A DNA stretch of 64,000 bases, taken from NCBI GenBank assembly GCA_964016885.1, contig OZ024743.1, forward strand, positions 241,180,001 to 241,244,000, read 5' to 3'. Made by a program: the position numbers and the translations under genes. The notes below the pieces were generated by a model. It was not told where the DNA came from and searched no databases. It saw only the letters and a program-made list of their open reading frames with translations. This document shows positions 1-54,699 of this stretch, piece by piece (within the stretch, counting starts at the first letter, position 1; each line of letters opens with the position of its first letter). This DNA is from Eledone cirrhosa (taxonomy: Eukaryota).

Positions 1-1971
1 ATCAGTCATAACTGAATACACATATGACCACCTGATAACAAATGACCTATTTCCCATTGAGCAGAAAGGCTGTAAACGAGGCTCATATGGCTGTAAGGAT
101 CAGCTTCTGGTTAACAAAATGATACTGGAAGATTGTCATAATAGACACAAAAATCTATCGATTGCTTGGATAGATTACAAAAAAACATTCGATAGTTTGC
201 CACACAGTTGGATTGAAAAATGTTTAGAGATTTTCAAAATATCCCCCGTTGTCAGGAGGTTTTTGTCATTCAGTATGAAGACATGGAAAACGACACTCCT
301 TTTGAATAGTGAAACAAAATCACTGGAAGCTGGAGAAGTTAATATTAATTGTTGAATTTTTCAGCGTGACTCTTTATCACCGCTTTTATTCTGCATCGCA
401 CTTATACCATTAAGTAAAATGCTCAATGAAACAAAACATGGATATAAAGTCTATGACAAAACCATTAATCACTGGTTCTACATGGATGACCTGAAACTAT
501 TTGCAAAAAATGATGAACAATTGCAAGGGCTATTATCCACTGTGGACAGTTCAGTGATGACATTAAAATGTAGTTTGGACTAGATAAATGAGCCAAAGCA
601 ACGTTCACCAGAGGAAAGCTGCTGAAGAGTTCAGACATTAATCTTGATCGGGGGAACGTGATAAGAGAACTTGATCAAGAAAAAACTTACAAATATCTAG
701 GTGTTTGTGAAGGAGACGGAATCAAGCACTCGACAATGAGGGAAAGGATAAGGAAGGAATGTTACCGCAGAGTAAGAGCAATCTTAAGAACGGAATTGAA
801 TGCAAGGAATAGGATCGATGCCATAAACACGCTTCCCATACCAGTAGTAACCTACAGTTACAATGTCATCAACTGGTCAAGCACAGAGATCCGTAGGCTC
901 GATACAAAAATTAGAAAATTCTTAACCATGCACAGAATGCATCACCCTAAGGCAGATATAGATAGAATATATCTCCCTAGGAAAGAAGGAGGACGTGGGT
1001 TAATCCAGTTAGACATTGCGTTGAAAACTGCAACAATTGGATTATCTACATATCTAAGGGAATCACATGATTGGATGATCAAACTCGTTTTGAAACACGA
1101 AAGCATCAAAAGATCATATTCCATTACAAAAGATGCACAAAGATACAGTAATGGACTACAAATTTCAGAAGTCCCATTTACTGCTGAAATGGAAAACACA
1201 GAAAAAGCAAAGCAGGTAAAAGTAACTGCAAAGAAAGAACTGCTACAGAAACTGGCTAAGAAATGGCAAGAAAAGCCTCTGTATGGAAAATACCCAGAGC
1301 GAGCTAACAATCCTGATGTTGATAAAACTTTAACCCATCAGTGGTTGGCATTCTCTGGACTGAAAGCGGAGACTGAAGGACTGATTATATCAGCACAAGA
1401 TCAGTGTCTGCCAACAAAAAATTACCAAGCCAACATAATAAAAAATGGATGCAGCCCATTATGCCGTGTATGCAAAAAACAACCAGAGACCATTGACCAT
1501 ATAATTTCAATGTGCAGTCCTATAGCTCCAACCGAATACCTAAACAGGCATGACAGAGATGCACAATACATACATTGGATAATGTGTAAGCATTTTGACC
1601 TGCCCCATCAAAAGAATTGGTGGGAGCATCAACCACCTCCCATACTTGAAAGAGATCACATCTCAATCTTGTGGAACTTTAGCATCCAAACAGACCGAAA
1701 AATAGATGCAAATAGACCTGATATAATATTGAAGGACTTTAAAAAGAGGGTATGCCTGCTGATTGATATGTCTGTTCCAATAGACAAGAATGTATCTATA
1801 AAAACATTTGAAAAATTGAGCAAGTATAAGGACCTGGAGATGGAAATTGGAAAAATGTGGAAATTGAGAACTAAAACAATACCAGTGGCTGTAGGCGCTC
1901 TGGGAATGACACCTAAGGGGTCTAATGATTACTTATCGCAAATCCCAGGAAACCCGCGTATAGGAGAAATA
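1..1971 (+). pseudogene. Degenerate R4/Dong-clade (RT + restriction-like endonuclease) non-LTR retrotransposon, family 1; runs off the window start
   Basis: ORF pieces 119-355 (WIDYKKTFDSLPHSW) and 658-1986 (YKYLG, EGGRGL, CRVC..ETIDHIISMC knuckle, RHD, PDIIL..IDMSVP..KLSKY). A YMDD RT motif lies near 480, with stops and frameshifts in 355-657. Confidence 0.9.
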
Positions 1972-2643
1972 GAAGGAGGAGGCTAGCCCACTATGTAGGA
2001 TATGTGGAGAGAGAGAGGGTACTGTGGCTCACATTGTATCCGAGTGTAAACAGCTAGCCGAGACTCACTATAAAGGCCGGAGACATGATGGGATGGGCAG
2101 GGTGATCCACTGGCACCTATGCAAAGTAAACAATTTACCACATTCTGAGAAGTGGTATGAGCATAAGCCAGAGTCGGGGATAGAAAACGATCAGGTGAAG
2201 GTGCTGTGGGATTTTAGGATACAGACGGACAAGAAACTGGAACACAAAAGACCAGACCTGGTGGTTCTGGACAAGGAAAAAAGATCGTGCCTGATTGTGG
2301 ATGTAGCCTGCCCATTCGACACGAGAGTGCAAGAGAAGGTGAGGGAGAAAATTAACCGATACCAGGACTTAAAGTGGGAGGTAAAAAGGATTTGTAACTG
2401 CCATGAAGTCAAAGTGGTCTCGATTGTCATAGGCGCACTAGGTACTATCTCAAAGAGTTTCCAAGGATGGTTAAAGAAACTTGGTCCCGCCCCGCTTTTT
2501 GGAACACTTCAAAAGGCAAGCTTGCTGAGAACAGCAAGAATCCCCCGATAGGTCCTGAATATCTGAGGCTGCAGATAGTGGCTTGATATTCATTTCAACA
2601 AACTTTCCAGTTAAATAACATCAATGACTGAGACTCAAAGAAC
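1972..2643 (+). mobile_element. 5'-truncated R4/Dong-type element, family 2 (RLE domain + 3' UTR), followed by an (AAT)n tail
   Basis: Closely similar to 10977-11650. ORF 2024-2551 has RHD, PDLVVLD and KINRY motifs. Confidence 0.9.
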
Positions 2644-2961
2644 AATAATAATAATAATAATAATAATGATTACGTTTATTGGCCACAAGGGCCGACATAT
2701 AGGGGACAATACAAAAGACCGGGACAGTGGGGTTTTACAGAAAAATCGAGTAAACTATATGAATCACAATAACAAAGTAACAATAACAAAGTAACAATAA
2801 CAAAGTAACAATAAAGTAACAATAAAATTACAACAAGAAAAATTTTCCCAATAGGGGGGATGATCACCTAGGTTTCGCTCAGGTACCCCACCAGTTCCGA
2901 ACGACCCGACGCTTCGAGAGCACCCTGGAAGGCCCCCCTTCTCCTCCTCAAATTTACCTAC

Positions 2962-5961
2962 CTACAGCCGCATGACCAGAGTAGGCCCACTCACACGGGC
3001 CATTCTCGCCACATTCACCCACCTTTCAGCAAATGTACTGGGGGGCAGCACTTCTCTCTCCACCCTCACCTTCCTTTCCAAGTGAAACTTGAAAAAGTTG
3101 ATGAGGGATTGGCCGAAGAGAAAAGTGTCTATCTTCAGTCCTTTTAATATCGTCCACCACACAACCTCTTTCGCTACTGCCACCAGGCAGAGAAAAATTG
3201 CCTGCCCTTCCTGGCCAAAAGAAGGCGGCGGGTCGATCTTCACTATGGACTCGGCCGATAGCCGGATCCTTTCTACACGCGACAACAGCTGTTCAACATA
3301 ACTCCACAAGTCAGTAATGCACGGACACTGGACGAGTGCGTGCAGAACGGTTCCAGTCTCGGTCTCTTCTTGACCCAGAACTGCAGCTCAGTCATAGAAC
3401 GAGCTGCGGAAAGGCCCGTCTGACAAACGGCGATCACACCTGTTCACCGTTTAGGCAGAATATCTAGAGATGCCGCAGCCTCAGCGCGTGCCTGCGCATC
3501 ATTATCCACGGCATGCCCAGCCCTCCACGTAGAGGGTTCTGGCAGCAGATGGACCCCCTCACCAACGGAACCTGACCCCTCCACAAGTATTTGAAGAGGA
3601 GCCGCTCCAAGATGGCGAGGCGCGAACGGGGTGAAGGGACGAGGGTCAGACGGTAGTAGATGACGGACGCGATGTACGCGTTAGCCACCTCCGCCCGACC
3701 TTTCAGTGATAGCTTTATCCCAGCCCATTTCTGGGTGAGACTGGCTACCCTGTCCGTCACCTCGTCCCAATTCTTTTCCACCTGGAGGTCTGGCCCGAAC
3801 CAAACCCCTAGCAACTTTACCGGTCCGTCCGTCCAGCGGCTAACGACACTGTTGGACAGCATGGACTTGCCTCTCCAGGTGCCGAGTTGCAATCCCACTG
3901 ACTTTTCCGGGTTAAGTTTGCTCCCGTCAACCTTTCATATTCCTCCAATAAGTTGTCGACCACCTCGATTTCTGAGGTGTCCGACACCATCACGGTGATG
4001 TCGTCCGCATAAGCTGACACAGCCTTTCCGCGTCCCGGTTCGAGCGGGATGCCCTGCAACAGTTCCAGCTTCCGCAGTAAAGGCTCGAGAGTCAATACGT
4101 ACAGAAGGGAGGAGAGAGGACACCCTTGACGGACCGATCGGGAGACCTGAAACGGTTCCTCCAGGGTCCGATGGTCGACTCTATAGAATGCTTTCGATTG
4201 ATCTAAATTGATTAGAGCCCCACCGAAGCCAGGTTTACACCCTACCCTCTCTATGATGTATCGCATTAGGTGGAGGTTGTCGTGTATGGACCTGGGTGGG
4301 ATTGCGCAAGTTTGCGCCTCCCCAACCAAATCCCCGACGACAAGCGCCAACCTCTTCGCTAACACCCTGGCCAAAATCTTAAACTCTGTGTTGAGCAGAG
4401 TTATGGGCCTGAAATTGTCTAATGTGTCCCTCTTGTTCTCGTCTTTCCTTATCAGCGTGACCACGCCCCGGCTCACAGAACTGGGAATACTCCCGTGTTG
4501 CTGCCAGTTGCAGTAGAGGACTTTGAGGAGATTGGAGAACAAGTCTGGCATATTTACGTACAGCTCGTAGGGCAGACCATCCAAACCGGGTGACTGGCGC
4601 CTCATGCAGCCGACAAGGGCATCCTGAATCTCGGCTGAAGTAACTGGCTTTTCGCAGCGCCCAGCGTCAGCCGTCGAGAGTTGCGGCAAGCCATTGAGGT
4701 AGGGACTGAAGTCCGCCACCATCTCTGACCCGCCACTTCCCCCGAACAACCGAGCAAAATGTTGGCGAAAGGCCTCACACATCCTCTTGGAATCGCTCAG
4801 CTCGAGCCCGTCTCGGTCCGTCAAAGACCGAATCGTGGTTTTATTACCACGCTGTGCCTCTGCCACGCGGGCCCATCGAACAGCTTTGGTTACCTCGTTT
4901 CTCAGAGCACGCGCCTTAGCTCTGACAATGCAACCTTCGTGTTTCGCATTGAAGAAATGGTCTAATGCCATTCTCGCCGCTAGCACGTCAGTTGCAATTC
5001 CACTACCAATAGCCTCATCTAACTTATCTACCAACTCCCCTTCCTTTCTATTTTTCTCTAACGCTACTTCTTTGCTAAACTCTATCGACATTACTCTAAT
5101 CTCTCTTTTGAGAGCCCCCACCATCTATTGTTGACGACTCCCACCTGTTAACTTTTTCTTAACTAAATTGTTGACCTGGTCCCTGTAAGCCTTACGTGCT
5201 GGAAATGACATGTTTAGCTTCCAGTAACCAGGTCCTAACCCACGCGTCTTATCTAGGTCGACCATACAGATCACAAACTTGTGATCTGAATAGGCGACCG
5301 TTTCAAAACGTGGACAGCTTACACTATTTCTGTCTATTTTCCTAATGAATATCCTGTCTATATACGATCTAGACAACCCTATGTGGTTAGCCCAGGTCCA
5401 CACTGGCGCATTAGGGAAATCTAGTCGGTACCTGTCAGACAGTTGGAACTGGCTGATCAGGTTCTTGAGGTTTTTGCACCCCCCGCTCCTATTGGATACT
5501 CCAACACAGTCCCAGCGTGCGTCTAAGATGCCGTTCCAGTCCCCCGCTAACAGTAAAGGGCGAGACGTACCTAGAAAGACTTCCAGGGGTCTAAAGAAGT
5601 CCGGCCGTCCTGCCCCAGTAGGAGCATAGACGGCCACCTGTCTAAAGGCACCACCTTCGTTATTGTTCACGTCCAAGACCACCAACTTCCCATCCGGGTC
5701 CCGGAAGATCGACCTTACCTCGAGATCCAGGCCTTTCCTAAACACCACTACCACCCCGCCTCCCATTCCCGGCCAGCTAACAGATGCAAAGATCTGATAG
5801 TCGTCGAAAATGGGGGCTTGTGCGCGCGTGTCGGAAATCCTGGTCTCGCTGACTGCAATTACATCCATTTCTATAGATCTGAGGTCGTTGAGCAGGTGAC
5901 CCTGCTTCTAGGATGATCCCAGGACTCGAACATTTAAACATCCTACTCTTAATACAGCCAT
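2962..5961 (-). pseudogene. Tx1/L1 ORF2 (APE endonuclease + RT), disrupted
   Basis: Motifs VYAP, GDWN, IDRIF, SDH (APE); SPGLDGLPYE, FRPITLLN, RQGCPLS, AYADD (RT). Premature stop near 5908, frameshifts, and internal deletions relative to copy B. Confidence 0.88.
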
Positions 5962-5992
5962 GTTGGTAGGTTAAACAGAGAGAGAGGAAGGT

Positions 5993-7990
5993 TTACTTAC
6001 CTTCCGGGCTCTTGTGAAGGTCGGGTTGTTCGACCTCCATAGTTGGTGGGGTTTCTTTTGGGAACCCCTTTAAAAGTCTTGAAGTGGGTTTTACGTTCGG
6101 GGTTCCCACGTCCCGAGTAAAGCTGTCTCGTATTTCTTTGAATATATCGAGCGACATTCGCACCAGAACCAAATCTTCCGGCATTCGAAATGTGCTCGAT
6201 TTAAAAATTTCCCTCTCTATTTGTATATTTTCACTTCGTGCTACGAGGGCCATCAGTTTCTTGTTGGCCCTCCTGACGAGCACGAAGTTTTGTATGTTTT
6301 GTTGGTGTGATTTTATTTGTTTGCGTGGCTGTGGTGGTGATGGTTTTGGTGGTGTTGTTTCGGTTGTATCTGTGTTTGTTGTGAGTGCGGTGTCTGTGGT
6401 TTCAGATGTTTGTGCGTGTATTTGTTCTTGTGTCTGTTTCGGTTGTTTGCGTTTGGGGGATTCTGGTGATGGTGATGGTGGTGTTGATGTTGGTGTTATT
6501 AGAGAGATGTTTGCGTAGGTGGTATCTGCGTTTTTTAATGTGGGTTCTTTTGTGCTTTGTTGAGTTTTTTTTTTCTCTTTGTGTTTACTTTTTTGTATTT
6601 TGGGGGATTTTGGTTTTCCCTCATTTTCACTACTGGTAGATGAGGGGTCTGTGTCTGTAAGTGTGTCTGTATGTATGTTTATGGTTTTATTGGTGTGTGT
6701 ATTTTTTTTGGGGGGGGGGGGGATTTGACAGCTTTCCTCGTTTCCCCCCTGGGTGGTCAATGTTGGTGGTGGTCTTTCTATTGGTGTTGTTGTTGGTGGT
6801 TTTGCCGGTGCTGGTGTTGGTTGTGGTCCTCGCCCCGGCGTCGGCCACAGTGGAGCATTTCCACCCCTTGCCTCTTTCAGCAGTTGACGGCAGAAGTCTC
6901 GCAAATGGGTTTTTTCCCCACAAACAAAACACTGCGGCCTTTTGCCTTCGGTCATAATGTGAATGACCGTCCCATTCTGAAGGCGGATGTGGTCCGGGAT
7001 TGTCTTCACATTCTCGGGCCTGATCTGGAGAAGGATCTCCAGGTCAACCCCGGACCCGTCCTCTCTGGCCGTTCTGGTCACTTCTATAGGGACGGTAACC
7101 GTCCCCTCCACAATCACACATCCCAGAAGCCACGACATGTCAAGTCCTGGTGGGATTCTGGAAATGCGGAGACGGGCCGTTCTTTTTCCCATGTGGGAGA
7201 GGTACATTATGACCTTGCTGGTTTTGCAAGGAGTCATAGCGTGTTTCATAGCGAGGGCTTCTGACTTGAACAACACCTAAATGGTGCCGTACTGTCTGCT
7301 CCTCTCTATGTACTGGGCGTCTTCTCTGATGCACCTCAGCGCGACTTCGACATCTTCTTGTGGGATTAAAGCTGCCCTTTTGGTTTGTACTGAGATGCAT
7401 CTATAATGCACCGTTCTGCGCTCCACTGCCTCAATAGCTTCTACCGGGACAGTTAAGTTGGCCCAGGTTTGCTCTTGCTTGATGAGCTTCTATGCCTGGC
7501 CCAACTTTTCATCTTTGCTTGAGAGGTCCATATTAATGCATGGCCTCTTTTTTGTTGCTGCCGCAACGAAAGTGTTCTTCTTGTTTTCGTTGGGGGTGTT
7601 GTTGTCGTTGTCGTTGTTCTTGTTGGTGTTGTTGTTATCACTGTCGCTGTTATCATTGTTGTCTTTGTTGCCACCGTTGTTCTCGGTGCAGTTGGTATTG
7701 TTGCTGTTGGTGTTGTCGCTATTTGTTTTCATGTTAGTGGTGTTGATATTGTTGTTGTATTTGTTACTTTTTTTTGTTATCTGTATTTTCGTTGTCGCTG
7801 TTACAGTCATATTTTTGAAAATTAGAGTTCTCATTGGTATCATTGGTGTCTTTGTTTACCTTGTTTGTGGTGGTGTTTGTGTTGTCAATGTGTGTTAATT
7901 TCGCTGTAGCGCTCCTCTCAACTTCTACGTCGTTGTCGCACGACAGCCGACATATCGCTGGGGGGGGGGGGGGGGGCGTGGCTCAGCCAT
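5993..7990 (-). pseudogene. Tx1/L1 ORF1 (gag-like, single CCHC zinc knuckle, low-complexity N/T/P tracts), frameshifted
   Basis: CFVCGEKTHLRDFC in ORF 5993-7276. Likely ATG at 7990 (MAEPRPPP). Lies upstream of ORF2. Confidence 0.8.
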
Positions 7991-8206
7991 GTTTTTTTCC
8001 TTCGTAAATTTTTTAACATGTAAAAAAAAGTTCAAATATTTGGGCCAAAAGGACTAAATATTATACTTTCCCCTTCACGGGGCAAAGTCTAAGGGCTTAT
8101 ATCCCTTACACAATAAGAAATATTTAACAACAAATAATTTTAACAGGCAAATAAAGCGACTTACTGTGAGCGAGCAAAATACGCCCGCTTAGACCAATAA
8201 TAATAA

Positions 8207-8567
8207 CGTGGTTTTGGACAAGGAAAAAAGATCTTGCCTGATTGTAAATGTAGCCTGCCCATTTGACACGAGAGTGCAAGAAAAGGAGAGGGAGAAAATT
8301 AACCGATACCAGGATTTAAAGTGGGAGTTAAAAAGGATTCGTCCCTATTGGGATAGGCGCACTAGGTACTATCTCAAAGAGTTTCCAGGGATGTTTAAAG
8401 GGGATTAGTCCAGCCCCGCTTTTTGAAACACTTCAAAGGGCATGATTACTGGGAACAGCATGAACCCTCCGATACGTCCTGAATGTCTGAGGCTGCAGGT
8501 AGCGGCTTGATATTCATTTTAACAAAATTTCCAGTTAAATAACTTCAATGACTGAGACTCAAAGAAC
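8207..8567 (+). mobile_element. Short 3' fragment of Dong family 2
   Basis: Matches 2259-2643 with a small internal deletion; flanked by AAT repeats on both sides. Confidence 0.9.

Positions 8568-8630
<63 letters not shown>
8568..8630. repeat. (AAT)n microsatellite
   Basis: Perfect trinucleotide run between two Dong copies. Confidence 0.98.
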
Positions 8631-8632
<2 letters not shown>

Positions 8633-11600
8633 TCTGAATACTGAGATAAATAATACCTGGAACAGAGATACGGCCACTGAGGAGATGAATGCTGACGGGC
8701 TAGGACAAGATTCGGTTGACATCCTAAATTTAGTGGTAGATAGTGGGAGACCTATGAACCTAAGATTTGTAGACAGGAAAAAGTTAAAAGAAACAACAGC
8801 TAAGGTAAACAAAGTCATCCCATACCTTGAGGCGAGGAGTCTTCACCAGTGCAACAATATCCTCAAAGCAACAGCAAATACGGTGAGGAAACTACTTGGT
8901 ATAAAAGCGAGAGGAAACAACAGACAAGAAAGAGCAGAGCCGTGGTGGAAGAAGCGACTGAGTGGGCAAATCGGGGAAATGAGAAATGACATAGGAAAGC
9001 TTGAGTCACTACTGAATGGGACACTAAAAAACATAGGCACTAAAAATAGACTGGAAATAAAATACAAAACTAGGAGTAAAAAGCTAAATATTATCATAGA
9101 GGAATTGAAGCAACGCATTGTAGCAAAGAGTGCCAAAATCAGGCGATACGAGAACAGAGTCAGTCAGTATAAACAGAACCGCATGTTCGACAACAACCAG
9201 AAGATGCTGTTTGGACAGCTTGAGGGGAAAGAAAGAGGCAACGACTTGATCCCTGGGGCGGAACAAGCTAAAACATTCTGGAGAGGAATATGGGAGCAGG
9301 ATGTTAGACACAATGCCCAGGCAGGGTGGATTGAGACAGTACAGAGGGAGATCGGTGAGCAGGCACAACAACAGACTGATTTGAGTATCATAGTTGAAAC
9401 TCTTAAGGGGCAAGCCAAAAAACTAACCAACTGGAAATCACCAGGCCCAGATGGTGTGCAGGGGTATTGGATTAAACATTTAACATCCCTCCACCCGAAG
9501 CTGACGGCCATGTTCAATGACTGCTTGATGTCGGGTGAGGTGCCAGAGTGGTTGACAAAAGGTACCACAGTTCTGATAATGAAAGACCGAATCAAGGGTA
9601 ATGATGTTACCAACTATAGACCTATCACATGTCTGCCCGTAATGTGGAAACTGTTGACGAGCATTGTGTCTGAGGAAATCTACCATCACCTCCACACAAA
9701 CAACTTGTTACCGGACGAACAGAAAGGATGCCGAAAGAAGTCACGTGGTACAAAGGACCAGTTGCTTATTGATAAGATGGTAATGGGGAATTGCAGGAGG
9801 AGACACACTGATCTTGCCATGGGATGGATAGACTACAGAAAGGCATTTGACATGGTGCCTCATTCCTGGATCACCAAAAGCCTGGAGATCTTCAGGGTGG
9901 CAGATAACATCAGACAGTTGCTGGGCAGGAGTATGGGGTCCTGGGAGACAGAGTTGACATCAACTGGAGTATCCTTGGGAAGCGTGAAGATCAAGAGAGG
10001 TATCTTCCAGGGAGATAGCCTGTCCCCTCTGTTGTTTGTCCTTGCCCTGATGCCCTTGACCATTATGCTGCGAAAAGTGAGAGCAGGATACAAGTTGGGA
10101 AGGGGAGAGCTTACCATCAATCACCTCCTCTTCATGGACGATCTTAAGCTCTTCGGGAAAAGTGAGAAGGAGTTGGATGTGCTTGTTGACACTGTCCGTA
10201 TTTTCAGCAGTGATATATGTATGCAGTTTGGTATTGGTAAATGTGGAGTCATTGTGATGAAGAGGGGTAGGTTGAGCAGAAGTAACGGGATCCAGATACC
10301 AACAGGTGAGATGATAAAGGAAATTGACTCTGAGGAAGGATACAAGTATTTGGGCGTTCTGGAGGCTGATGGCATAAAGAACAAAAAAATGAAGGAATTG
10401 TTAAGAACTGAATACATTCGGAGAGTAAGGAGCGTATTGAAGTCACATCTGAACAGCAGAAATGCCATAAGCGCAGTAAATTCCCGAGCTGTGTCTATTA
10501 TTAGGTACAGTGCGGGAATTCTGAGATGGAATGTTGCTGAACAAAAAGAAATGGATAGGAAGACTAGGAAGCTATTGACTATCTACAACATGTTCCACAA
10601 GAGGAGTGATGTCGATAGACTCTACCTAAGGAGATCTGAGGGTGGAAGAGGTCTTATCAGCATAGAGGACTGTGTTCAGATGGAGAAAAACAACCTATAC
10701 AAATACGTGACCTATAGTAAGGAGCCAATGCTCAGAACTCTACTGAAGGAGGGGACAGTAGGCCAGGGGATGTCCAAGGAGGAAATAACATCAAGGAGGA
10801 AGAGCAGCCTTAAGGGAAAATCCCTTCATAGTACCTTCTTTGAGAAAACTGAATTTAGAGATCCACAGACATGGAACTGGTTGAGAAGAGGAGACCTCAA
10901 AAAGGCTACAGAAGGAATGCTAATGGCTGCGCAGGAGCAGGCCCTCAAAACGAAGTGGTTGAAGCACCATATCTACAAGGAGGAGGCTAGCCCACTGTGC
11001 AGGATCTGTGGAGAGAGAGAGGAGACTGTGGCTCACATTGTGTCCGAGTGTAAACACCTAGCCCAGACCCACTATAAGGGCTGGAGACACGATGTGATGG
11101 GCAGGGTGATCCACTGGCACCTGTGCAAAGTAAACAATCTACCACATTCTGAGAAATGGTATGAGCATAGGCCAGAGGCGGTGATGGAGAACAGTCAGGT
11201 GAAGGTGCTGTGGGATTTTAGGATACAGACGGACAAAAAACTGGAACACAATAGACCTGACCTGGTGGTTGTGGACAAAGAAAAAAGATCGTGCCTGATT
11301 GTGGATGTGGCCTGCCCGTTCGACACGAGAGTGCAAGAGAAGGAGAGGGAGAAAATTAACCGATACCAGGACCTAAAGTGGGAGGTGAAAAGGATTTGGA
11401 ACTGCCATGAAGTCAAAGTGATCCCGATTGTCATAGGCGCACTGGGGACTATCTCCAAAGGTTTCCAGGGATGGTTAAAGAAAATCGGCCCCTTCACGCT
11501 TTTTGGAATGCTTCAAAAGGCATGCTTGCTTGGAACAGCAAGAACCCTCCGATACGTCCTGAATATCTGAGGCTGCAGGTAGTGGCTTGATATTCAATCC

Positions 11601-11650
11601 AACGGACTTTCCAGTTAACCAACATCAATGACTGAGATTCAAGGAATAAC
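8631..11650 (+). mobile_element. R4/Dong-type non-LTR retrotransposon, family 2, probably 5'-truncated, young
   Basis: Uninterrupted ORF, ~80-nt 3' UTR and AAT repeats on both sides. The frame is open back to the AAT tract. Confidence 0.92.
8685..11570 (+). CDS. Reverse transcriptase + CCHC + restriction-like endonuclease polyprotein (961 aa)
   Basis: Motifs KSPGPDG, YRPITCL, IDYRKAFD, FQGDSLSPLLF, LFMDD, YKYLG, CRIC..HIVSEC, RHD and PD..D..K..Y RLE. Confidence 0.95.
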   Translation: MNADGLGQDSVDILNLVVDSGRPMNLRFVDRKKLKETTAKVNKVIPYLEARSLHQCNNILKATANTVRKLLGIKARGNNRQERAEPWWKKRLSGQIGEMRNDIGKLESLLNGTLKNIGTKNRLEIKYKTRSKKLNIIIEELKQRIVAKSAKIRRYENRVSQYKQNRMFDNNQKMLFGQLEGKERGNDLIPGAEQAKTFWRGIWEQDVRHNAQAGWIETVQREIGEQAQQQTDLSIIVETLKGQAKKLTNWKSPGPDGVQGYWIKHLTSLHPKLTAMFNDCLMSGEVPEWLTKGTTVLIMKDRIKGNDVTNYRPITCLPVMWKLLTSIVSEEIYHHLHTNNLLPDEQKGCRKKSRGTKDQLLIDKMVMGNCRRRHTDLAMGWIDYRKAFDMVPHSWITKSLEIFRVADNIRQLLGRSMGSWETELTSTGVSLGSVKIKRGIFQGDSLSPLLFVLALMPLTIMLRKVRAGYKLGRGELTINHLLFMDDLKLFGKSEKELDVLVDTVRIFSSDICMQFGIGKCGVIVMKRGRLSRSNGIQIPTGEMIKEIDSEEGYKYLGVLEADGIKNKKMKELLRTEYIRRVRSVLKSHLNSRNAISAVNSRAVSIIRYSAGILRWNVAEQKEMDRKTRKLLTIYNMFHKRSDVDRLYLRRSEGGRGLISIEDCVQMEKNNLYKYVTYSKEPMLRTLLKEGTVGQGMSKEEITSRRKSSLKGKSLHSTFFEKTEFRDPQTWNWLRRGDLKKATEGMLMAAQEQALKTKWLKHHIYKEEASPLCRICGEREETVAHIVSECKHLAQTHYKGWRHDVMGRVIHWHLCKVNNLPHSEKWYEHRPEAVMENSQVKVLWDFRIQTDKKLEHNRPDLVVVDKEKRSCLIVDVACPFDTRVQEKEREKINRYQDLKWEVKRIWNCHEVKVIPIVIGALGTISKGFQGWLKKIGPFTLFGMLQKACLLGTARTLRYVLNI

Positions 11651-11656
11651 AATAAC

Positions 11657-11704
<48 letters not shown>
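11651..11704. repeat. (AAT)n tail / target tract
   Basis: Direct reading. Confidence 0.97.
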
Positions 11705-11705
<1 letters not shown>

Positions 11706-11948
11706 TTTTTTTTATTAACCACAAGGGTTTACATAAAGTAGACATTAAGGACAGTACAGGACAATACAGGACGGTACAAATGGGCATTTCTGCGTGTAAA
11801 AAAAACAGAGGATGAAATAAAATAACAAAGAAAAATTCCCCAATAGGGGGGAGACTTCCGAGGGACATTTGTGGAGAAAGCCCATTAAAAGACCACAGTG
11901 GCCCTGACCACCAGGGCAAGTGCCCTCTCCCAGTTTTCCACCTTTAAT

Positions 11949-14900
11949 TTACAGACACATACTCAGAGAAGGCCCATTCATTCGGGCCATACTTGCTTCT
12001 CTCACCCATCTTTCAACAAAATGCTGGGAAGAGAGCACTTCCCTCTCTACCCTGATTTTCCTTTTCAAATGAAATTTGAAAAAGTTAATCAGGGCATCAC
12101 CGAAGAGGTAAGTGCTCGTCTTCAGCCCTTTCAAACGTGTCCACCATACTATCTCTTTCGCCATGGCCACCAGACAGATAAAAACTGCCTGCCCTTCCTG
12201 GCTAAAGGAAGGGGGCGGGGCAATCCTCACGATGGACTCAGCTGATAGCTGGATCCGTCCTACACGTGACAGCAGGTGTTCGACATAAACCCACAAGTCA
12301 GCAATGCTCGGACACTGGACGAGTGCGTGCAGGACGGTTTCGTCGCCCTGCGCGCATCTCGGACATGCCCGACTGACGGCACCTCCATGCCTGTAGAGTT
12401 TATCCTGAACTGGCAAGGCTCCTCGGTAGCACTGCCAGGCCAGGAATTTCTGGAAGTTGTCCATAGGCCCCGGCCCGAAAGTCCTTCCGAAGAGATTGGC
12501 TAGTTGATTTTCGTCGACGCCTAGAGTTTCTCCAAGTACGTCGTCGCTCTTCCCCTCCACTAATCCCCTATAGAACGCCAAGGTGGAGTTTCCACCGATC
12601 ACATTGCCCGATTGGTCGAGGGCTGTGAGCGCCTGAAGACATTCCAGTCTCCAAGCGCTTCCTCTCGGTCTTCGCTTGACCCAGGACTGCAGCTCCGTCA
12701 AGGAAACGAGCTGGGGAAATACGTGTCTATCAAACGGCGACCACACCTGATCACCGTCGAGGAAGAGGTAGAGATGTCGTAGCCTGAGCGCGTGTCTGCG
12801 CATTATCAGCCACGGCTTGCCCAGCCCTCCACGTAGAGGGTGTTGACAGCAGATGGACCGCCTGACCATCGGAGCGCGTCCCTTCCACAAAAAGCGAAAG
12901 AGCAAACGCTCCAGCGCAGTCAGGCGGGGCTTAGGACAAGGTACGACGGTCAGGCGGTAGTAGATGACGGATGCGATGTAGGCATTCGCCACCTCCGCTC
13001 GACCTTTAAGGGATAGCTTCCTCTCCACCCATTTCTGGGTGAGAGAAGCCACCCTGCTCGTCACCTCGTCCCAGTTTTTGTCCGTCTGGAGGTTTGGACC
13101 GAACCAGACCCCTAGCAATTTAACCGGTCCGTCCGTCCAGCGCCCGACGACGCTGTTGGACGGCATGGACCTGCCTCTCCAGGTGCCGAGCTGCAGGCCC
13201 ACTGACTTTTCCTGGTTGATCATTGCTCCTGTCACCGCTTCGTATTCTCTTAGTGTAGTGCCGATCGCCTCGATGTGTTTGGCGTTCGACACCACTACGG
13301 TGACATCGTCGGCATATGCTGACACGGATCTTCCGCATCCTAGTTCGCGCGGGACCCCCCTCAACGTCTCCAGTTTGTGCAGTAATGGCTCGAGAGTCAA
13401 TACGTACAATAGGGACGAGAGGGGACATCCTTGGCGGACCGAGCGCATGATGTTGAACGGTTCCGAAAGGTGACCGTTCACTCTCACTACAGAGCAGATG
13501 TAGCTGTGCATGGCAGCGATCCAGCCTCTGAAGACGGGCCCAAAGCCAGCCGCCCTCAGGACTGCCGCTAGGTAACGATGGTCGACCTATCGAAGGCTTT
13601 CGACTTATCTAAATTCATCAAAGACCCACCCGTGCCAGGTTCCCTAGCTACCCTCTCTACGATGTCTCGCATGAGGTGGAGGTTGTCGTGGATGGATCTG
13701 TCGGGAATGGCGCATGTCTGTGCCTCTCCCACCAGACCACCAACGACAAGCGCCAACCTCTTTGCTAGCACCTTGGCCAAAATCTTGAACTCTGTGTTTA
13801 GCAGAGTTATGGCCCTCAAATTATCTATGTTATCCCCCTTGTTCGGATCCTTTCTCAGCAACGCCACCGCTCCTCGGCTCACAGAGCTGGGAATTCTCCC
13901 GTTCTGTTGCCAGTTGCAGTAGACGCCCGCCAAGAGGCCTCCGAACAAGTCTGGCATTTGTACGTAAAGTTCATAGGGCAGACCATCCAAACCAGGCGAT
14001 TTACCCCTTGTGCAACTAGTCATTGCATCCCGTACTTCAGCGGTTGTTATCGGCTTTTCGCAACACTCCGCCTCAGTGGCCGAAAGCCACGGCAGTCCGT
14101 CGAGGTAGACACTAAAGTCCATCCCTCGATCCGGCCCGCCACTGCCCCCGAACATTTGAGCGAAGTGTCGCTGAAAAGCTTCACACATTTGCCCGGGATC
14201 GAGTAGCATGCGCCCGTCGTTTTCCACCAAAGACCGGATCGTGGCTTTGTTGCCACGACGCGCCTCCGCCACTCGGGCCCATTGAACGGCTTTCGTCCCC
14301 TCGTGTCTGAGAGCACGCACCCTAGCTCTGACAACGCAGCCTTCGTGCTTTGCATTGAAGAATTGGTCAAGGGCCAATTTCGCCGCAAGTACGTCGGTCG
14401 CGATGCCTTTGCTAAGCGCCTCATCTAATTTTCTAACTAATTCTCCCTCTGCTCTATTTTTCTCTATTGCTAAAGTCTTACTAAACCTAATGGACTCTAT
14501 TCTAATTGCTCTTTTCAGAGCAAACCACCACTTGTTGTTTACGATGGCCCCCGTCAACGCCCGCTTAACTAGTTCGCTAATCCGGTCTCTGTAGGCCTTG
14601 CGCGCTGGTAAGGATGCGTTTAGCTTCCAGTAGCCGGGTCCTCGTCTATGAAGGCTATCTAAGTCAACCACACAGATCACGAATTTGTGGTCCGTGTATC
14701 TGACTACCTTGAATTGTGGACAGCCTATGCTAGACCTATCTATTTCCCTACAAAATACTCTATCTAGATATGATCTGGATGACCCTATGCGATTTGTCCA
14801 AGTCCACATTGGTACATTCGGGAAATCCATTCGGTACCTGTCAGACAGTTCAAAACGTCTGAGCAGGTTGGTAAGACTCTTGCACCCTCCTTCCCTATCC

Positions 14901-15367
14901 ACTAATCCCACACAATCCCAGCGTGCATCTAAGATCCCGTTCCAGTCGCCCACTAACACTAAAGAGCGGGACGTTCCAAGAAAGGTCTCCAGACGCCGGA
15001 AGAAATCAGGCCGCCCTGCTCCTGTCGGGGCATAGACGGCCACTAACCTGAAAGCTTGCCCGTCTCCGCTGGTCACGTCCAGCACCACCAACTTACCTTC
15101 TGGGTCCAGGAAGATGGCCCGTATGGCAAGATCCAAACCTCTCCGAAAAAGCACAGCAACTCCTCCCCCCGATCCCGGACGGCTGGGAGATGCGTACACA
15201 TCGTAGCCGCCGAAGATCGGTGCAAAAGCCTGTGCTTCGGAGATTCTGGTCTCGCTGATGGCCACTTCATCTATGTTTAGTGACCTGAGGTCGTTGAGCA
15301 GGTGGCCCTGCTTCCATGACGATCCCAAGCCACGCGCATTTATGCTGCCTATTCTGAGTGAGGTTAT
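11949..15367 (-). CDS. Tx1/L1 ORF2: APE + RT + C-terminal CCHC, with one frameshift near 13585
   Basis: ORFs 13568-15328 and 11949-13511 join at KAFDR/VDHRY. Motifs AYADD and CPRC..HALVQC. The codon matching copy A's ATG is ATA. Confidence 0.9.
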
Positions 15368-15401
15368 GTTGAAAAGGAGTGGAAAAGATGGGAAAGACCA
15401 C

Positions 15402-17269
15402 TTACCTTACTTCTCGTAGGGGAAGGACGGTTTTTCCATCCTTTTCACTGCTTGTGGCCTCCTCAGGAAGGATGTCCTTATAAATCCTCCTGGAGAGTGC
15501 TTGTCGGAAGTCTCCGATGTCTTTGGGGAATTTTTGTTTTAGTGTCATGTACGTTTTCTGTGTGATGCGAGTGATTTGTATGTGTGGAGGTGGTGTGAAT
15601 TTTTGGGTTGTTGTGTAGTCTTTTTCTGTGATGCTGGTGTTGTGTTGGATGTAGTGTAATAATTGCTTGTTGTTCAAATTTAATGCTGTGTAGTGTGTAT
15701 CGTTTTGGTTGTTTTGTTTTGTTTGCTTTTGTTGTGGGTTTGTTTCTGTTTCGCATTTTGGTGACTTTTGTGGTGTAGGTGATGGTGGTGCTGGGGTTAA
15801 TGATGGTGATGGTGTTGGTGTTTGGGTTGATGGGGTTGGTGATGCTGGTGTGGATGGTGGCATACCTGTCCTAACTTTTTTGTTTCTTAATTTATTTGTT
15901 TCCCTCTGTATTTTGTTTTTGGAGGGAGAAGGAAGAGAATTTTTTCTTTTTTGGTTTCTTTTTTTTTTCCGGATATCGTTTCCCACTCCTCGTCGTCACA
16001 ATCTGTCTCCAGTTGTGATAGGCCGGGGAGTGGAAAATCCTCCACAGGCGTTAGTTTTGGTTGTGGTGTGGTGGATGGTGTAGGCGCTGGTGCTAGTTCT
16101 GAAGCGTTGGGTGGTGGTGGTGTTGGTCTTGCTGGTGGTGGTAGTGGTGTTGGTTTTGCTACTGTTGCTGGGGTTGTTGCTGTTATAGTTGCTTCTGTTG
16201 TTGCTGCTACAGTTGTTGCTGCCATCTCTGCTACTGGTGGTGTTGATGGTTGTGTCACTGGGGTGGGTAGGAGAGGTGGCCTCAACCTTTTAGCCTGAGG
16301 GCAGAAAGCCCTTAGGTGGGTTCCTTCACCACAAACGACACACCTAGGTCTTCTGCCCTCGACAATTACCGTGAGGTGGCTGCGGTCAGTGAGGTCTATT
16401 ACCTCTGGGATCTCCTCAATGCTTTTTTGGTCCGCTTGGATCAGGCGCTCCATCCCAGATCCGGACCAGTTTTCCTGCTTTTCTTTTGCTATTGCTATTA
16501 TTTTCGTGTTGGCTTCGATGCCGGCGAGGACAGCCGCTATTAGCCAGGGAATTTCGATGGCCGGTGGAACGTGGGTCACCCTGATCTTTACGAGTCTCTG
16601 GCCACAATAGCTTGGGACGAGTGTGAAGTCGTCACTTTTTAATGGGGCCATGGAGTGTTCTCTAGCCTCCTCTGGTGTTTCAAAGAACACATCCACGGTT
16701 CCATACTTTTGCCCACGTCTGATGTGGGTTTTTCTTGCCCACACATGTCCCAAAGCCTTTTGGATTTGGGACTCGGATGCCCGTTCCACTCGGCGCGATT
16801 TTACATTTATTGTTCTATACGACACGGTGCATAGGCGCCGATGCTCCATTTTATTAGGTGGGGGGTAATGTCATTGTTGTTGTTGTTGCTATCGTTAATA
16901 TTAATTTTAGTTTCAGTTGTGGTGGTGGTGACGTCAGTCGTCTTTGGTGGGGAAGAGTCCATTTTGCTTGATTTCATTTCGACATCACGAGTTAATTTAT
17001 TTTTTTCTTCTTTTGTTTCTGTTGTCGCGGTGGTGGTGGGGGGGGGGGGTTGTCGTGGTGGTGGTGGTGGTGGTGGAGGCTTTAACACCTGCAGTCATTG
17101 GTAATGGCGGGAAATGAATGTCTGCCTGAGACAAATTTAAAATATTGCTACTGCTTATATTTTTTTTAGTGTTGACAAACGTAGTAACATTTACAATGGT
17201 GGTGTCGGTGTGAGGTGTTAATTTGTGAGGAAGGCTTTCAGCTGTTTGGTGCAGAGGTGAATTAGCCAT
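15402..17269 (-). CDS. Tx1/L1 ORF1 (CCHC knuckle), split by frameshifts at homopolymers
   Basis: CVVCGEGTHLRAFC. Segments 16997-17269, 16807-17088, 15887-16849 and 15402-15986 overlap near G/T runs. Confidence 0.8.
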
Positions 17270-17477
17270 TTTTTTTCAAAGAAATTTGTTGATAATAATA
17301 AAAGTTTAAATTTTGGGCTCAAGGCCCCAATCGTTTTGGGTGTCCTTTTCGGAAAACAATGTATGTGCGCTTATAAACAGTTAACAATAAAATTTTCCAT
17401 AAATGACAATTTTTAACAAACGGAAATAACAAACCTTTGCGGAGCTCACGATGATACGATTTACTACGTAGGTCGCC

Positions 17478-17491
17478 AATAATAATAATAA

Positions 17492-17570
<79 letters not shown>
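17478..17570. repeat. (AAT)n microsatellite
   Basis: Direct reading. Confidence 0.97.
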
Positions 17571-17571
<1 letters not shown>

Positions 17572-17572
<1 letters not shown>

Positions 17573-17790
17573 ATAGGCGCACTGGGGACTATCTCCAAGA
17601 GTTTCCAGGGATGGTTAAAGAAAATCGGCCCCTTCACGCTTTTTGGAACGCTTCAAAAGGCATGCTTGCTTGGAACAGCAAGAACCCTCCGATACGTCCT
17701 GAATATCTGAGGCTGCAGGTAGTGGCTTGATATTCATTCCAACGGACTTTCCAGTTAACCAACATCAATGACTGAGATTCAAGGAATAAC
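17572..17790 (+). mobile_element. Short 3' fragment of Dong family 2
   Basis: About 4 mismatches by eye against 11432-11650. Confidence 0.92.
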
Positions 17791-18442
17791 AACAATAATA
17801 ATATAATAACTGGTATGCCTATATATGTATATATATATATATATATATATTTTTTTTGCTTAGAGTAATGTGGAATACGAAAACGAAAAGTGGGTATGTT
17901 TAAGAAGCTGCACAATGCAACTGGCTTAGAATTACCAAGGTAACAAGTCGGAGGGGAATTGAGATGAGTGGGGTTGAAAGCAAATGTAGAATAGCTTCGG
18001 ATTTACTTCATATTATGAAGGTGGGATCCATAGGGGAAGGGATTCGGAGAAATCAGTGATTGCCTTCCTTGTCCCCCTTGACAATGGATGGTAAATCCTA
18101 AAAACATATTTTCTGTTTTATTCTGTCACTGACCACAACCTTCAGGTCAAGGTGGGGAACCATCTTCAAGCGATTTAGTCGATCACATAGAGTTGCATGT
18201 GAGACATAGACATAGAATGATAAAGAAAGATATATTGAATTTGGATTTGTTTGAATGAGTATGAAAAAAGAGGAGGGAGTGGGAGTGGGGGAGACACGAA
18301 AGAAATGAATAGTGGAAATAGTAGAAAAATGATAAAAGAGTGGGTGTTTGATGAAAAGGGAAGAGAGTACGGAAAATATAGAAAGAAAGTGTAAAAGAAA
18401 TGAATGAGGTAGGGAGAGGGAGATGAGTGATATATATAAACA

Positions 18443-25395: not shown

Positions 25396-25583
25396 AATTG
25401 TTTCTACTATTGGCACAAGGCCAGCAAATACCCAGTACATTACTGGTACTTTATTTTATCGACCCCGTAAGGATGAAAGGCAAAGTTAACCTCGGCGGGA
25501 TTTGAACTCAGAATGGCAAGGGCCGTAACTCTATGCGTCAAAGCATGGCGTCCGACCCTCTACCGATACTGCCAATCCACCAC
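25396..25583 (-). mobile_element. tRNA-derived SINE copy
   Basis: On - strand: TGGCAGTATCGGT (A box), GAGTTCAAATCC (B box) and the shared body. Confidence 0.85.
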
Positions 25584-32450: not shown

Positions 32451-32599
32451 ATTCCCACTGGCTATATATATACATACATGTGTATGTATATAATGTGTAT
32501 GTATATATGTATAATATATATTATATATATATGTATATATATAATATATATATGTATAATATATATATTATATGTATATGTATATATATAATATATATA

Positions 32600-33145
32600 T
32601 ATTTATTAAAATAACAGATTAAAGTTTAAGCAAAGAATCGCTGCTTTCACCCTTAACGGGATCTTCTGAAACTAACAAAGTCAATCTGTAAACGCAGAAC
32701 TGGATATTTCAAAAAACGTTGCAACCGGAGGAAGACAGGAAGACGATACTTTGGTTCGTGGTAACGTTCGCTGGCAAAGAACGGGAAAAAACGAATAATA
32801 CGTCATTAATAGGAGCGGTGAAAAACAATTACGCGCAAAGACAAAACCACGTTTATGGTATAAAAGAGGTCGTAGACTAATGTTCTCTTAAGTGGTGCAT
32901 AGAGACGTTCTCTGGCAATGAACGAAAAAACGAAGATAATAAGTCATATGTGGAGCGTGGAGAACAATAGCACGCAAAGACAAAACCACGTAAATGGTAT
33001 AGCAGAAATCGTAGACTAAAATTCTAACTAGGAGACCAAATGAATCTCCGCTACAGAGTTAAGAACAAAGTAAATAAATACAATACAGAAGTAATAGGAA
33101 CAAATAAATACATACACGCAAACAGATACGTAAATACACAAGCAT
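32600..33145 (-). mobile_element. Solo 3' UTR/pseudo-LTR of the Naiad-type family at 51049-54670
   Basis: Colinear with ~51133-51680. Confidence 0.9.
32615..32688 (-). ncRNA. Type I hammerhead ribozyme, CAGAAGA core
   Basis: Reverse complement of 37411-37484. Confidence 0.75.
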
Positions 33146-36367: not shown

Positions 36368-37590
36368 TATTTATTAAAATAACAGATTAAAGTTTAAGCA
36401 AAGAAACAAAAAATCTGAGGCAATTTTGGCTTGTAAACATAAATTGCACAAAACTTTCCTGTATTACAGCCCCACGTTATACCCTAACGGATAGCACGAT
36501 CTATACGTGGATATTTTACGTCTTGATGTGGGAGCTAAGTATATGTTTTGTTTATTCCTTTACTTATTTGCATAGGTAAGTATATATTACCCGTATGTTT
36601 TGTGAAGGTATGTATACCTTCTCGTACGTATATTTGACTGTTACGGCGTATAATTTTTACATATTCTGGTATTTAGGGTTTGGCTATGTGTATATGGGTG
36701 TTTTGCGTCTGCGTGAGAATGCAGGTTCGTACGTATGGTGGGTGTGTGTATATGTGTACTTCTTGTTTTAGTTGACTTACGTCTCCGAACCTTCGTGTAT
36801 TTATTTGTAGGTATGTGTGTGCGCTTGTTATATACGTATTTATTTACTTACTTATATACGTTTATATAATTATTTATTTATTTGTACACAAGCATACACA
36901 CATACACATATTTATATGTGCGTGGTTTTGTATACCTATGGTAAGGTTTTGCGTATGCTTGTGTATGTACGTATCTGTTTGCGCGTATGTATTTATTTGT
37001 TTCTATTACTTCAGTATTGTATTTATTTACTTTGTTCTTAACTCTGTAGCGGAGATTCATTCGGTCTCCTAGTTAGAATTTTAGTCTACAACTTCTGCTA
37101 TACCATTTACGTGGTTTTGTCTTTGCGTGCTATTGTTCTTCACGCTCCACATATGACTTATTATCTTCGTTTTTTCGTTCATTGCCAGAGAACGTCTCTA
37201 TGCACCACTTAGAGAACATTAGTCTACGACCTCTTTTATACCATAAACGTGGTTCTGTCTTTGCGCGTAATTATTTTTCACCGTTCCTATTAATGACGTA
37301 TTATTCGTTTTTACCCGTTCTTTGCCAGCGAACGTCACCATGAACCAAAGTATCGTCTTCCTGTCTTCCTCCGGTTGCAACGTTTTTTGAAATATCCACT
37401 TCTGCGTTTACAGATTGACTTTGTTAGTTTCAGAAGATCCCGTTAAGGGTGAAAGCAGCGATTCTTTGCTTAAACTTTAATCTGTTATTTTAATAAATAT
37501 TTGCTCTTCGGTTCTAATATATTTGATATATATTTTCCTTATCGAGCCCTCTTTGGATTTTAGTCTTCAATTTTATTATTATTACTATAT
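36368..37590 (+). mobile_element. 5'-truncated copy of the Naiad-type element (ORF end + 3' UTR) with a short inverted cap
   Basis: 36405-37590 is the reverse complement of ~51049-52235; 36368-36405 is an inverted copy of 37462-37500. Confidence 0.9.
37411..37484 (+). ncRNA. Type I hammerhead ribozyme, CAGAAGA core
   Basis: cagattga..agttt-CAGAAGA-tccc gttaa gggt-GAAA-gca..tgc-TT-aaact ttaatctg; all three stems pair. Confidence 0.78.
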
Positions 37591-41478: not shown

Positions 41479-41654
41479 ATTGTATATATATATATATTTT
41501 ATATATATATATTATACCCATTGGCAGATCTCACACAATGCAGCCTCGACAGATGGATACTGCTTGATTATGGCTGACAACTGATGCAACCAATACACCA
41601 TAGTTAAAACCAATGTATGGAACATTATATTATGTAACATTATATCATTATTTT

Positions 41655-41838
41655 GGTGAATTGCAGTATCGGTAGAGGGTTGGGCGCTTTGCTTTCTAGC
41701 ATAGTTACGTTCCTTTACAGTCTGAGTTCAAATCCCGCCGAGGTTAACTTTGCCTTTCATCCTTACGGGGTCGATAAAATAAAGTACCAGTAATATACTG
41801 GGTATTTGCTGGACTTTTGCCTAAAGTAGAAACAATTA
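41655..41838 (+). mobile_element. tRNA-derived SINE copy
   Basis: Same family as 42005-42192. Confidence 0.85.
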
Positions 41839-42004: not shown

Positions 42005-42192
42005 TGGCGGTGGATTGGCAGTATCGGTAGAGGGTCGGACGCCATCCTTTCCAGCATAGTTCCGTCCCTTTACCATCTGAGTTCAAATCCCGCCGAGGTT
42101 GACTTTGCCTTTCATCTTTACGGGGTCGATAAAATAAAGTACCAGTAATGCACTGGGTAATTGCTGGCCTTGTGCCTAAAGTAGAAACAATT
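42005..42192 (+). mobile_element. tRNA-derived SINE (Pol III A/B boxes), followed by a deleted copy at ~42207-42270
   Basis: TGGCAGTATCGGT..GAGTTCAAATCC, conserved body gccgaggttgactttgcctttcatc..ggtcgataaaataaagtaccag, ATT tail. Confidence 0.88.
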
Positions 42193-51222: not shown

Positions 51223-52147
51223 TAAACGCAGAAGTGGATATTTCAAAAAACATTGCAACCGGAGGAAGACAGGAAGACGATACTTTGGTTTTGTGGAAAC
51301 GTTCGCTGGCAAAGAACGGGAAAAAACGAATATAATACGTCATTAATAGGAGCGGAGAAAAACAATTACTCGCAAAGACAGAACCACGTTAATGGTATAA
51401 AAGAGGTCGTAGACTAATGTTCTCTTAGGTGGTTCATAGAGACGTTCTCTGGCAATGAACGAAAAAAACGAAGATAATGCGTCATATGTGGACCGTGGAG
51501 AACAATAGCACGCAAAGACAAAACCACGTAAATGGTATAGCAGAAGTCGTAGACTAAAATTCTAACTAGGATACCGAATGAATCTCCGCTACAGAGTTAA
51601 GAACAAAGTAAATAAATACAATACAGAAGTAATAGAAATAAATTAATACATACACGCAAACAAATACGTACATACACAAGCATACGCGAAAACACTTACC
51701 ATAGGTATACAAAACCACGCCCATATAAATATGTGTGTGTGTGTATGCGTTATATACAAATAAATAAATAATTATATAAACGTATATAAATAAATAAATA
51801 CGTATATAACAAGCGCACACACATATCTACAAGTAAATACACGAATGTTCGGAGACGTAAGTCAACCAAAACTTGAAGTACACGTATACACACACCCTAC
51901 ATACGTACGAACCTACATACTCACACAGACGCAAAACTCCCGTATACACATAGCCAAACCATATGTACCAGAATATATAAAATTATACGCTATAACATAA
52001 ACAATCAGATATACGTACGAGAAGGTATACTTACCTTCTCAAAACATACGGGTAATATATACTTACCTGTGCAAATAAGTAATGGTATAAACAAAACATA
52101 TACTTAGCTCCCACATCAAGACGTAAAATATCCACGTATAGATCGTA

Positions 52148-54276: not shown

Positions 54277-54422
54277 GATGAATATAAGTCAGTAGAGTGC
54301 TCAACCGAAGGAGCCAAATAGTAATAATAATAAATTTGAACACTAAAATCCAAAGAGGGCTCGATAAGTATAAATATATATGAAATATATAAGAACCGTA
54401 GAGCAAATATTTATTAAAATAA

Positions 54423-54496
54423 CAGATTAAAGTTTAAGCAAAGAATCGCTGCTTTCACCCTTAACGGGATCTTCTGAAACTAACAAAGTCAATCTG
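54423..54496 (-). ncRNA. Hammerhead ribozyme (5' pLTR), CAGAAGA core
   Basis: Same sequence as 37411-37484. Confidence 0.78.
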
Positions 54497-54699
54497 TAAA
54501 CGCAGAACTGGATATTTCAAAAAACGTTGCAACCGGAGGAAGACAGGAAGACGATACTTTGGTTCGTGGAAACGTTCGCTGGCAAAGAACGGGAAAAAAC
54601 AAATATAATACGGCATTAATAGGAGCGGAGAAAAAGAATTACGTGCAAAGACAGAACCACGTTAATGGTAATATATATAGAATATATATATATATATAT

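Follow-up and report, generated by a model that had tools for sequence, protein, structure and literature searches.

The Tx1-like elements and the Dong-like 3′ ends that bracket them in the window (a stretch of 64,000 nucleotides of Eledone cirrhosa contig OZ024743.1, positions 241,180,001 to 241,244,000) are neighbours because both families lie in the same (AAT)n target, and the bracket is a by-product of this common microsatellite target. A sequence-only reading of the window, which had drawn attention to the bracket, missed this cause of the adjacency. The region is very probably a stack of separate insertions abutting (AAT)n, in which the brackets would be independent Dong insertions beside Tx1 and not the outcome of target duplication or transduction.

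Positions 1–17790 of the window form a head-to-tail stack of retroelements with AAT runs between them (Table 1), and the same stack extends ca. 8 kb upstream of the window. The 3′ end of DongX is absent, and its junction to A1 lacks AAT. Among the matches listed, the best other copies of A1 are 96–97% identical to it. Tx1A consists of an ORF1 region and a broken APE-RT ORF2, with internal deletions relative to its family, and Tx1B has an ORF1 region at 15887–16870 and an APE-RT-zf ORF2 at 15370–11949 with one frameshift. That a Dong-Tx1 unit had been duplicated inside the window, in tandem or as a segment, was considered and ruled out, the ORF2 sequences of Tx1A and Tx1B being only 73–80% identical. 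A repeat search over the whole window was dominated by TA microsatellites. The genome searched for further copies comprises 3.0 Gb in 1796 contigs.

Table 1. Elements and AAT runs of the stack, in window coordinates.
Feature	Position	Strand	Remarks
DongX (second Dong-like family)	1..1970	+	5′ start 1.9 kb before the window, behind an AAT run; zf-RVT weak
A1, Dong-like, subtype A, 3′ 674 nt	1970..2643	+	90% identity to 10974-11674
(AAT)8 target run	2644..2667	+	
Tx1A, Tx1/L1-like	2668..8195	-	both ends present; Pfam Exo_endo_phos and RVT_1
Short AAT run, 3 units, at Tx1A 5′ end	8196..8206	+	
A2, Dong-like, 5′-truncated, 23-nt internal gap	8207..8567	+	subtype A, sub-group other than that of A1
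(AAT)21 target run	8568..8630	+	
B1, Dong-like, 5′-truncated, 3.0 kb, very young	8631..11647	+	open frame to 11570: RT, putative CCHC knuckle and RLE-type motif
AAC/AAT run, ca. 19 units	11648..11704	+	
Tx1B, Tx1/L1-like	11705..17477	-	both ends present
(AAT)31 target run (ca. 31 units) at Tx1B 5′ end	17478..17571	+	
B2, Dong-like, 5′-truncated, 216 nt, young subtype B	17572..17787	+	followed by a short AAC/AAT run and unique DNA

The Dong-like frame of the B1 type matched RVT_1 (4.7e-23) and, weakly, zf-RVT in Pfam, with no APE in its one-ORF architecture, and its best matches in PDB were R2 proteins (E 3e-30). Its translation contains CxxC-H-C and RPD..D motifs, which we take to be a CCHC knuckle and an RLE-type motif. 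One ORF with a predicted RT, CCHC knuckle and restriction-like endonuclease motif, together with insertion at TAA repeats, is what characterizes Dong/R4; the label Dong comes from the sequence-only reading and is based on this predicted architecture and on the target. The Tx1-like copies matched Exo_endo_phos, RVT_1 and zf-RVT in Pfam, and the best PDB match of their ORF2 was LINE-1 ORF2p over residues 5–594 (E 2e-23). An ORF1 and an ORF2 with predicted N-terminal APE, RT and C-terminal zinc motif, all of the L1 group, agree with Tx1, a name that is likewise assigned from architecture and target. None of the homologues listed, at least 120 for the Dong-like protein and 36 for the Tx1-like one, carries the name of a known element.

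An RLE-type Dong-like family, an L1/Tx1-like family and a SINE adjoin (AAT)n with fixed opposite polarity and stack up: the Dong-like 3′ end runs into AAT, and the Tx1-like elements and the SINE are oriented the opposite way. In all fetched DNA, AATAAT was present within 30 nt at 138 of 144 Tx1 3′ ends and 146 of 148 Dong 3′ ends, with none reversed; 19 loci in this polarity count came from an AAT-containing query, and the rest did not. Among 96 5′-truncated Dong copies, which have 90 distinct truncation points, 72 adjoin AAT, and four 5′-truncated Tx1B copies (L231, L234, L235 and L241; 257–501 nt) adjoin it on the truncated side. Since AAT is found at truncated 5′ ends as well, the repeat serves as the target and is more than a tail. 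Two or more pure AAT units were present at the 5′ junction of 37 of 40 Tx1A and 36 of 40 Tx1B copies. For the Tx1-like family, a single target type thus occupies more than 20% of flanks, which is the threshold for target-specific families given in the text of PMC4494074.

Several of these features have counterparts in known systems. The target of Dong is given as TAA repeats in PMC3812793, and its R4 lineage and TAA 5′ flank are described in PMC3774820. Like the R4-clade elements Dong of Bombyx mori, DongAg and DongBg, the family studied here has a single RT frame with a putative C-terminal CCHC knuckle and RLE-type motif and TAA repeats on both sides; unlike Dong as known, at least two Dong-like families here occur in the same arrays as an APE-type family that has the opposite polarity. 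Octopus vulgaris is reported to have Dong-R4 with five recently active families and 1129 insertions (PMC13282606), and both Dong-R4 and L1-Tx1 are recently active in that species, their targets being unmentioned in the main text of the reports (PMC13282606, PMC9115989). Microsatellite targets described for the Tx1 clade are (TC)n for Kibi, (TTC)n for Koshi and (TTCC)n/(TTTC)n for crocodilian Tx1 (PMC4494074); these elements share with ours the APE-RT ORF2 of the L1 group, the microsatellite on both sides and the tandem copies, but the target here is (ATT)n on the sense strand. In the same paper, tandem SINEU-3 copies are interpreted as insertions that took place one after another, and SINEU is linked to Tx1 through a common target (PMC4494074). 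SART and TRAS, which occupy the telomeric repeats of Bombyx mori (PMC10088271), are like the present case in that two families form arrays in one simple repeat in opposite orientations; both of them are, however, R1-clade APE elements at telomeres, whereas the two element types here, RLE and APE, occur together in dispersed microsatellites. Further background can be found in PMC3747384, PMC4824008, PMC4640811 and PMC5035012. No Tx1 family targeting AAT/ATT was found in the open-access literature searched; one could already be listed in Repbase or in the tables of PMC4494074. (ATT)n is likely a new target for a Tx1-like family. If true, the shared (ATT)n target would account for a large part of the repeat stacking associated with AAT in this 3-Gb genome, and the endonuclease specificity it implies can be tested.

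The sequence-only reading had described each Tx1 copy as bracketed by a subtype-matched pair of Dong 3′ ends, and this observation is borne out in part. Four Dong-like 3′ ends are present, at 2643, 8567, 11647 and 17787, each with (AAT)n behind it, with the first motif set (that with ttaaataac) on the A pair and the second (that with ttaaccaac) on the B pair. B1 and B2 differ at 4 of 219 nt, and Tx1A is more decayed than Tx1B, with 46/2590 (1.78%) versus 24/3401 (0.71%) private substitutions and with an ORF2 in three aligned pieces versus two. What did not hold is the closeness of the A pair: A1 and A2 differ at 39 of 361 nt and by a 23-nt gap. Over the 216 nt common to all four ends, 25 differences separate A1 from A2 and 26 separate A1 from B2 (A1/B1, 30; A2/B2, 35; A2/B1, 39), so that the tail motif common to A1 and A2 goes with a distance little smaller than that of a cross pair. 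Neither left member is a short fragment: A1 spans 1970–2643, and B1 is a 3.0-kb piece (8631–11647) whose RT frame is open. Each Tx1 5′ end is separated from the right-hand fragment by an AAT run (3 units at A and ca. 31 at B), and the fragment is therefore not directly at the junction. By chance, two copies each of A and B would stand in the order A, A, B, B with a probability of 1/3 (two of six orders), and sharing of a subtype is common because both subtypes are large families.

The partners are not each other's closest relatives in either pair. They were compared with 138 unique Dong 3′ ends (146 merged), which came from searches with B2, A2 and A1 (30 loci each) and from the Tx1 loci. In these pools, which are best-match samples (the best 40 of 383–1879 candidates per search) whose counts show existence and not frequency, 12 of 136 other copies are nearer to B1 than B2 is and 8 are nearer to B2 than B1 is; for the A pair, 110 of 136 are nearer to A1 than A2 is and 79 are nearer to A2 than A1 is. 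In a tree of Dong 3′ ends with a rough bootstrap, B1 and B2 fall inside one supported 23-member young clade and are not sisters, and A1 and A2 fall in separate sub-groups. Because the bootstrap of this tree is unsettled (0.945, with 89 of 131 inner branches open), the argument is carried by distances and allele sharing and not by topology. At three of the four B1/B2 differences, both alleles are present in at least 2 of 21 other B-clade copies; since both alleles segregate in the family, the differences derive from different source copies. The same is true of 14 of 25 A1/A2 differences, which likewise have both alleles among other copies. No rare allele common to the partners was found in the A pair or the B pair when their alleles were checked against the sampled copies.

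Private substitutions bear on which insertion came first. B1 has 2/3017 (0.07%), ten times fewer than Tx1B (p = 3e-5), and A1 has 4/669 (0.60%), also fewer than Tx1A (p = 0.03); A2 has 4/360 (p = 0.51 versus Tx1A), and B2 (0/216) lacks the length needed for dating. The nearest sampled relative lies at 1.69% from Tx1B (45 copies) and at 0.41% from B1 (31 copies), and the Tx1B of the window is typical of its family, whose median is 0.71% private substitutions. A duplicated target must predate the insertion that duplicates it, yet B1 and A1 carry fewer private substitutions than their Tx1, which argues against target duplication; by these counts, B1 likely arrived after Tx1B and was not duplicated by it. 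In a look for empty alleles, three contig sets (from one sample) and one RAD run were aligned to 17572–18440; the Dong part drew reads of the whole family, and no piece spanned the junction.

The surroundings of other Tx1 copies were examined at 39 other Tx1B and 39 other Tx1A loci, gathered by their 5′ ends. Both junctions were found at 58 of the 80 Tx1 loci; the 22 loci without a recognisable 3′ junction were left out, as was L066, a tandem duplicate of L065. The right-hand 3′ end at L063, on the far side of a nested insertion, may be that of another copy. Past the 5′ AAT run, the 40 Tx1B loci have Dong A/B (16), Tx1 (7), DongX (6), SINE (4), another Dong-like 5′ end (1) or unnamed sequence (6), and the 40 Tx1A loci have Dong A/B (7), Tx1 (9), SINE (9), DongX (3) or unnamed sequence (12). 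Dong A/B is present on both sides at only 6 of 56 loci outside the window, and when 14 loci were picked for a Dong-AAT-Tx1B junction, Dong A/B was on the far side in 2. In eleven brackets (nine of them outside the window, with the same range), the partners are 2–28 nt apart in ca. 216. The mean of this distance is not clearly below that of shuffled pairings when the window pairs are left out (n = 9, P = 0.14) and is borderline when they are included (P = 0.050).

Three mechanisms had been offered for the bracket, and one of them, contemporaneous bursts of the paired families, survives in part, on the strength of the age coupling presented below; target duplication and 5′ transduction do not. 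According to the former, Tx1 insertion duplicates 220–360 bp of target site and with it the Dong 3′ end, and it is true that each right fragment is a suffix of the left element, that the B pair is 98% identical and that the older Tx1 has the more diverged pair. Precedent for an unusually long duplication exists in R9 of bdelloid rotifers, whose target-site duplication is reportedly exceptionally long, but R9 is rDNA-specific and the pairs here fail the duplication tests. Their partners are not nearest relatives and have no rare allele in common, the B1/B2 differences segregate in the family, B1 is likely younger than Tx1B and an AAT run stands between the fragment and the Tx1 end. For pair A, duplication is already refuted; its partners are 11.6% apart, and Tx1A has 1.8% private substitutions. 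When left and right were compared at the 58 loci, no junction-to-junction repeat of more than 90% was found outside the window. Target duplication of this length by an L1-group element would be a new integration mechanism; it is unsupported here, where we consider it extremely improbable, and the finding as stated is ordinary. No more credit can be given to 5′ transduction, in which Tx1 transcription would begin within an antisense Dong 3′ end lying upstream, and the Dong sequence would move with the transcript. Dong A/B is the commonest named neighbour on the 5′ side of Tx1B (16/40), and at L035 (start 2634 versus 2635 in A2) and L205 (2803 versus 2802 in B2) a Dong fragment by the Tx1 5′ end starts within 1 nt of the window fragment, but these two loci combine another Tx1 family with another Dong subtype. 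Starts of Dong neighbours vary by locus, except in the tandem duplicate L065/L066 and two full-length copies; 24 of 40 Tx1B and 33 of 40 Tx1A copies have no Dong A/B in this place, the sequence past the 5′ AAT run varies by locus in all 40 Tx1B and 40 Tx1A, and the match to the left flank would be left unexplained.

The insertions could also be independent in the main, with local re-insertion or gene conversion added, such that Dong seeds or converts its array neighbours and some brackets are true near-sisters. Enrichment of Dong on two sides (6/11 versus 10/45) reached p = 0.059 without the window and 0.014 with it, and the permutation result that includes the window pairs points the same way. 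At L043 and L054, no sampled copy out of 176 comes nearer to the right member than the left partner does, and one rare allele is common to the L054 pair. Neither bracket is a target duplication, given a left copy shorter than the right one at each locus and, at L054, an identity of only 95.8% over 1556 nt; this identity is low for local seeding too, 9 of 11 bracket partners rank third or lower as relatives, and neither window pair shows the effect. We consider such seeding unlikely as an account of the brackets.

The preferred reading remains a stack of separate insertions into (AAT)n, for which the following steps are proposed. The nicking step is modelled on target-primed reverse transcription: the endonuclease of each family would nick one strand of the AAT repeat, where reverse transcription would prime, and every insertion would leave AAT on both sides as a new target. 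At A, private substitutions suggest that Tx1A inserted first and A1 later, A2 not being orderable against Tx1A; at B, they suggest that Tx1B inserted in a younger wave and that B1, and probably also B2, then inserted beside it. The subtype match would reflect the Dong subtype active when each flank was hit, and neighbours likely match because they arrived in the same activity wave. A wider model, to which we give a little less than an even chance, is that Dong and the Tx1-like family nick opposite strands of (AAT)n, that the latter carries a SINE whose 3′ tail is related, and that the families feed each other, fresh AAT runs being preferred by the next active family, so that arrays record waves and neighbours are age-matched.

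Ages of neighbours were compared between the two Tx1 families, of which Tx1B is the younger (0.9% versus 1.9% from the majority; n = 38 and 29). With the window excluded, the identity of Dong neighbours to the young subfamily has a median of 95.9% at Tx1B (n = 23) versus 91.3% at Tx1A (n = 8), p = 0.004, and neighbours at least 97.5% identical to the young subtype number 9/23 at Tx1B versus 0/8 at Tx1A (p = 0.068). Older flanks are likely hit less by young Dong owing to shorter AAT runs at older junctions, although the evidence on this step is mixed. The AAT run at the Tx1 5′ junction is longer in Tx1B (13.5 units versus 7 in Tx1A, p = 0.002), and fresh flanks would on this account be better targets. 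Behind Dong 3′ ends, the run length is uncorrelated with private substitutions (rho 0.04, p = 0.63, n = 170; medians 7 versus 7 units), which weakens the tract-length step; its correlation with distance to B1 has a rho of -0.25. The matching ages of neighbours provide a means of reading the order of retrotransposon waves from array structure.

Tx1B, the younger family of Tx1-like APE-RT retrotransposons, was found head-to-tail in arrays at loci L034, L035 and L056 and at L065/L066, outside the window. Since the neighbours at L035/L056 have an interrupted AAT run in common, and L065 and L066 share their whole right flank, tandem duplication also contributes to the growth of some arrays. At L033, a 1.4-kb sequence occurs on each side of one Tx1B copy, with 98.8% identity between the two occurrences, which lie at distances of 673 and 576 nt from the Tx1B junctions. 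Insertion of Tx1B into a tandem unit is likely here, rather than target duplication.

AAT runs are also a frequent site of a SINE-like repeat, mostly in the orientation of Tx1, and its tail follows 74 of 521 runs. Its final 30 nt were similar to the Tx1 3′ end in 12 pairings (p 0.0005-0.015 versus shuffles, values to be read in light of the post hoc choice of these pairings, once seen). Because of this resemblance, Tx1 is likely the partner LINE of the repeat. Minimum-energy folds of the 45-nt tails differed, and no common hairpin was obtained.

Positions of the SINE-like repeat and of the Penelope-like candidate
Feature	Sequence	Position	Strand	Length
SINE-like repeat	window	25399-25581		~185 nt
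SINE-like repeat	window	41652-41834		~185 nt
SINE-like repeat	window	42008-42189		~185 nt
SINE-like repeat	window	57542-57722		~185 nt
SINE-like repeat	L050 (oriented)	8008-8195		~185 nt
Penelope-like candidate, open frame	window	52148-54433	-	761 aa

The 761-aa frame had no match in a Pfam search. It is likely a Penelope-like element, judging from a YRDD motif, which we take to be RT-like, and a presumed GIY-YIG-like motif. Near it, 52000-52238 and 54372-54605 are inverted repeats of 36404-36642 and 37302-37535. Arms of ~550 nt at 32599-33145 and 36955-37500, 97-98% complementary and 3.8 kb apart, may belong to a foldback or MITE-like element of recent origin, and a near-perfect hairpin (arms of 267 nt, 13 nt between) occupies 61831-62377.

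At window position 1970, the subtype A Dong-like copy A1 is joined to DongX, a second Dong-like family, with no AAT spacer and with the DongX 3′ end missing, which suggests a deletion or template switch between the two families.

Further AAT-linked families occur among L070 (7001-8065), L037, L057, L134, L138 and L058. One is a third Tx1-like family, with ~80% identity to Tx1B; another is an element “Y”, one end of which adjoins AAT on the side where Dong does. An additional AAT-linked repeat, at L033 and L168, carries ATT at its end.
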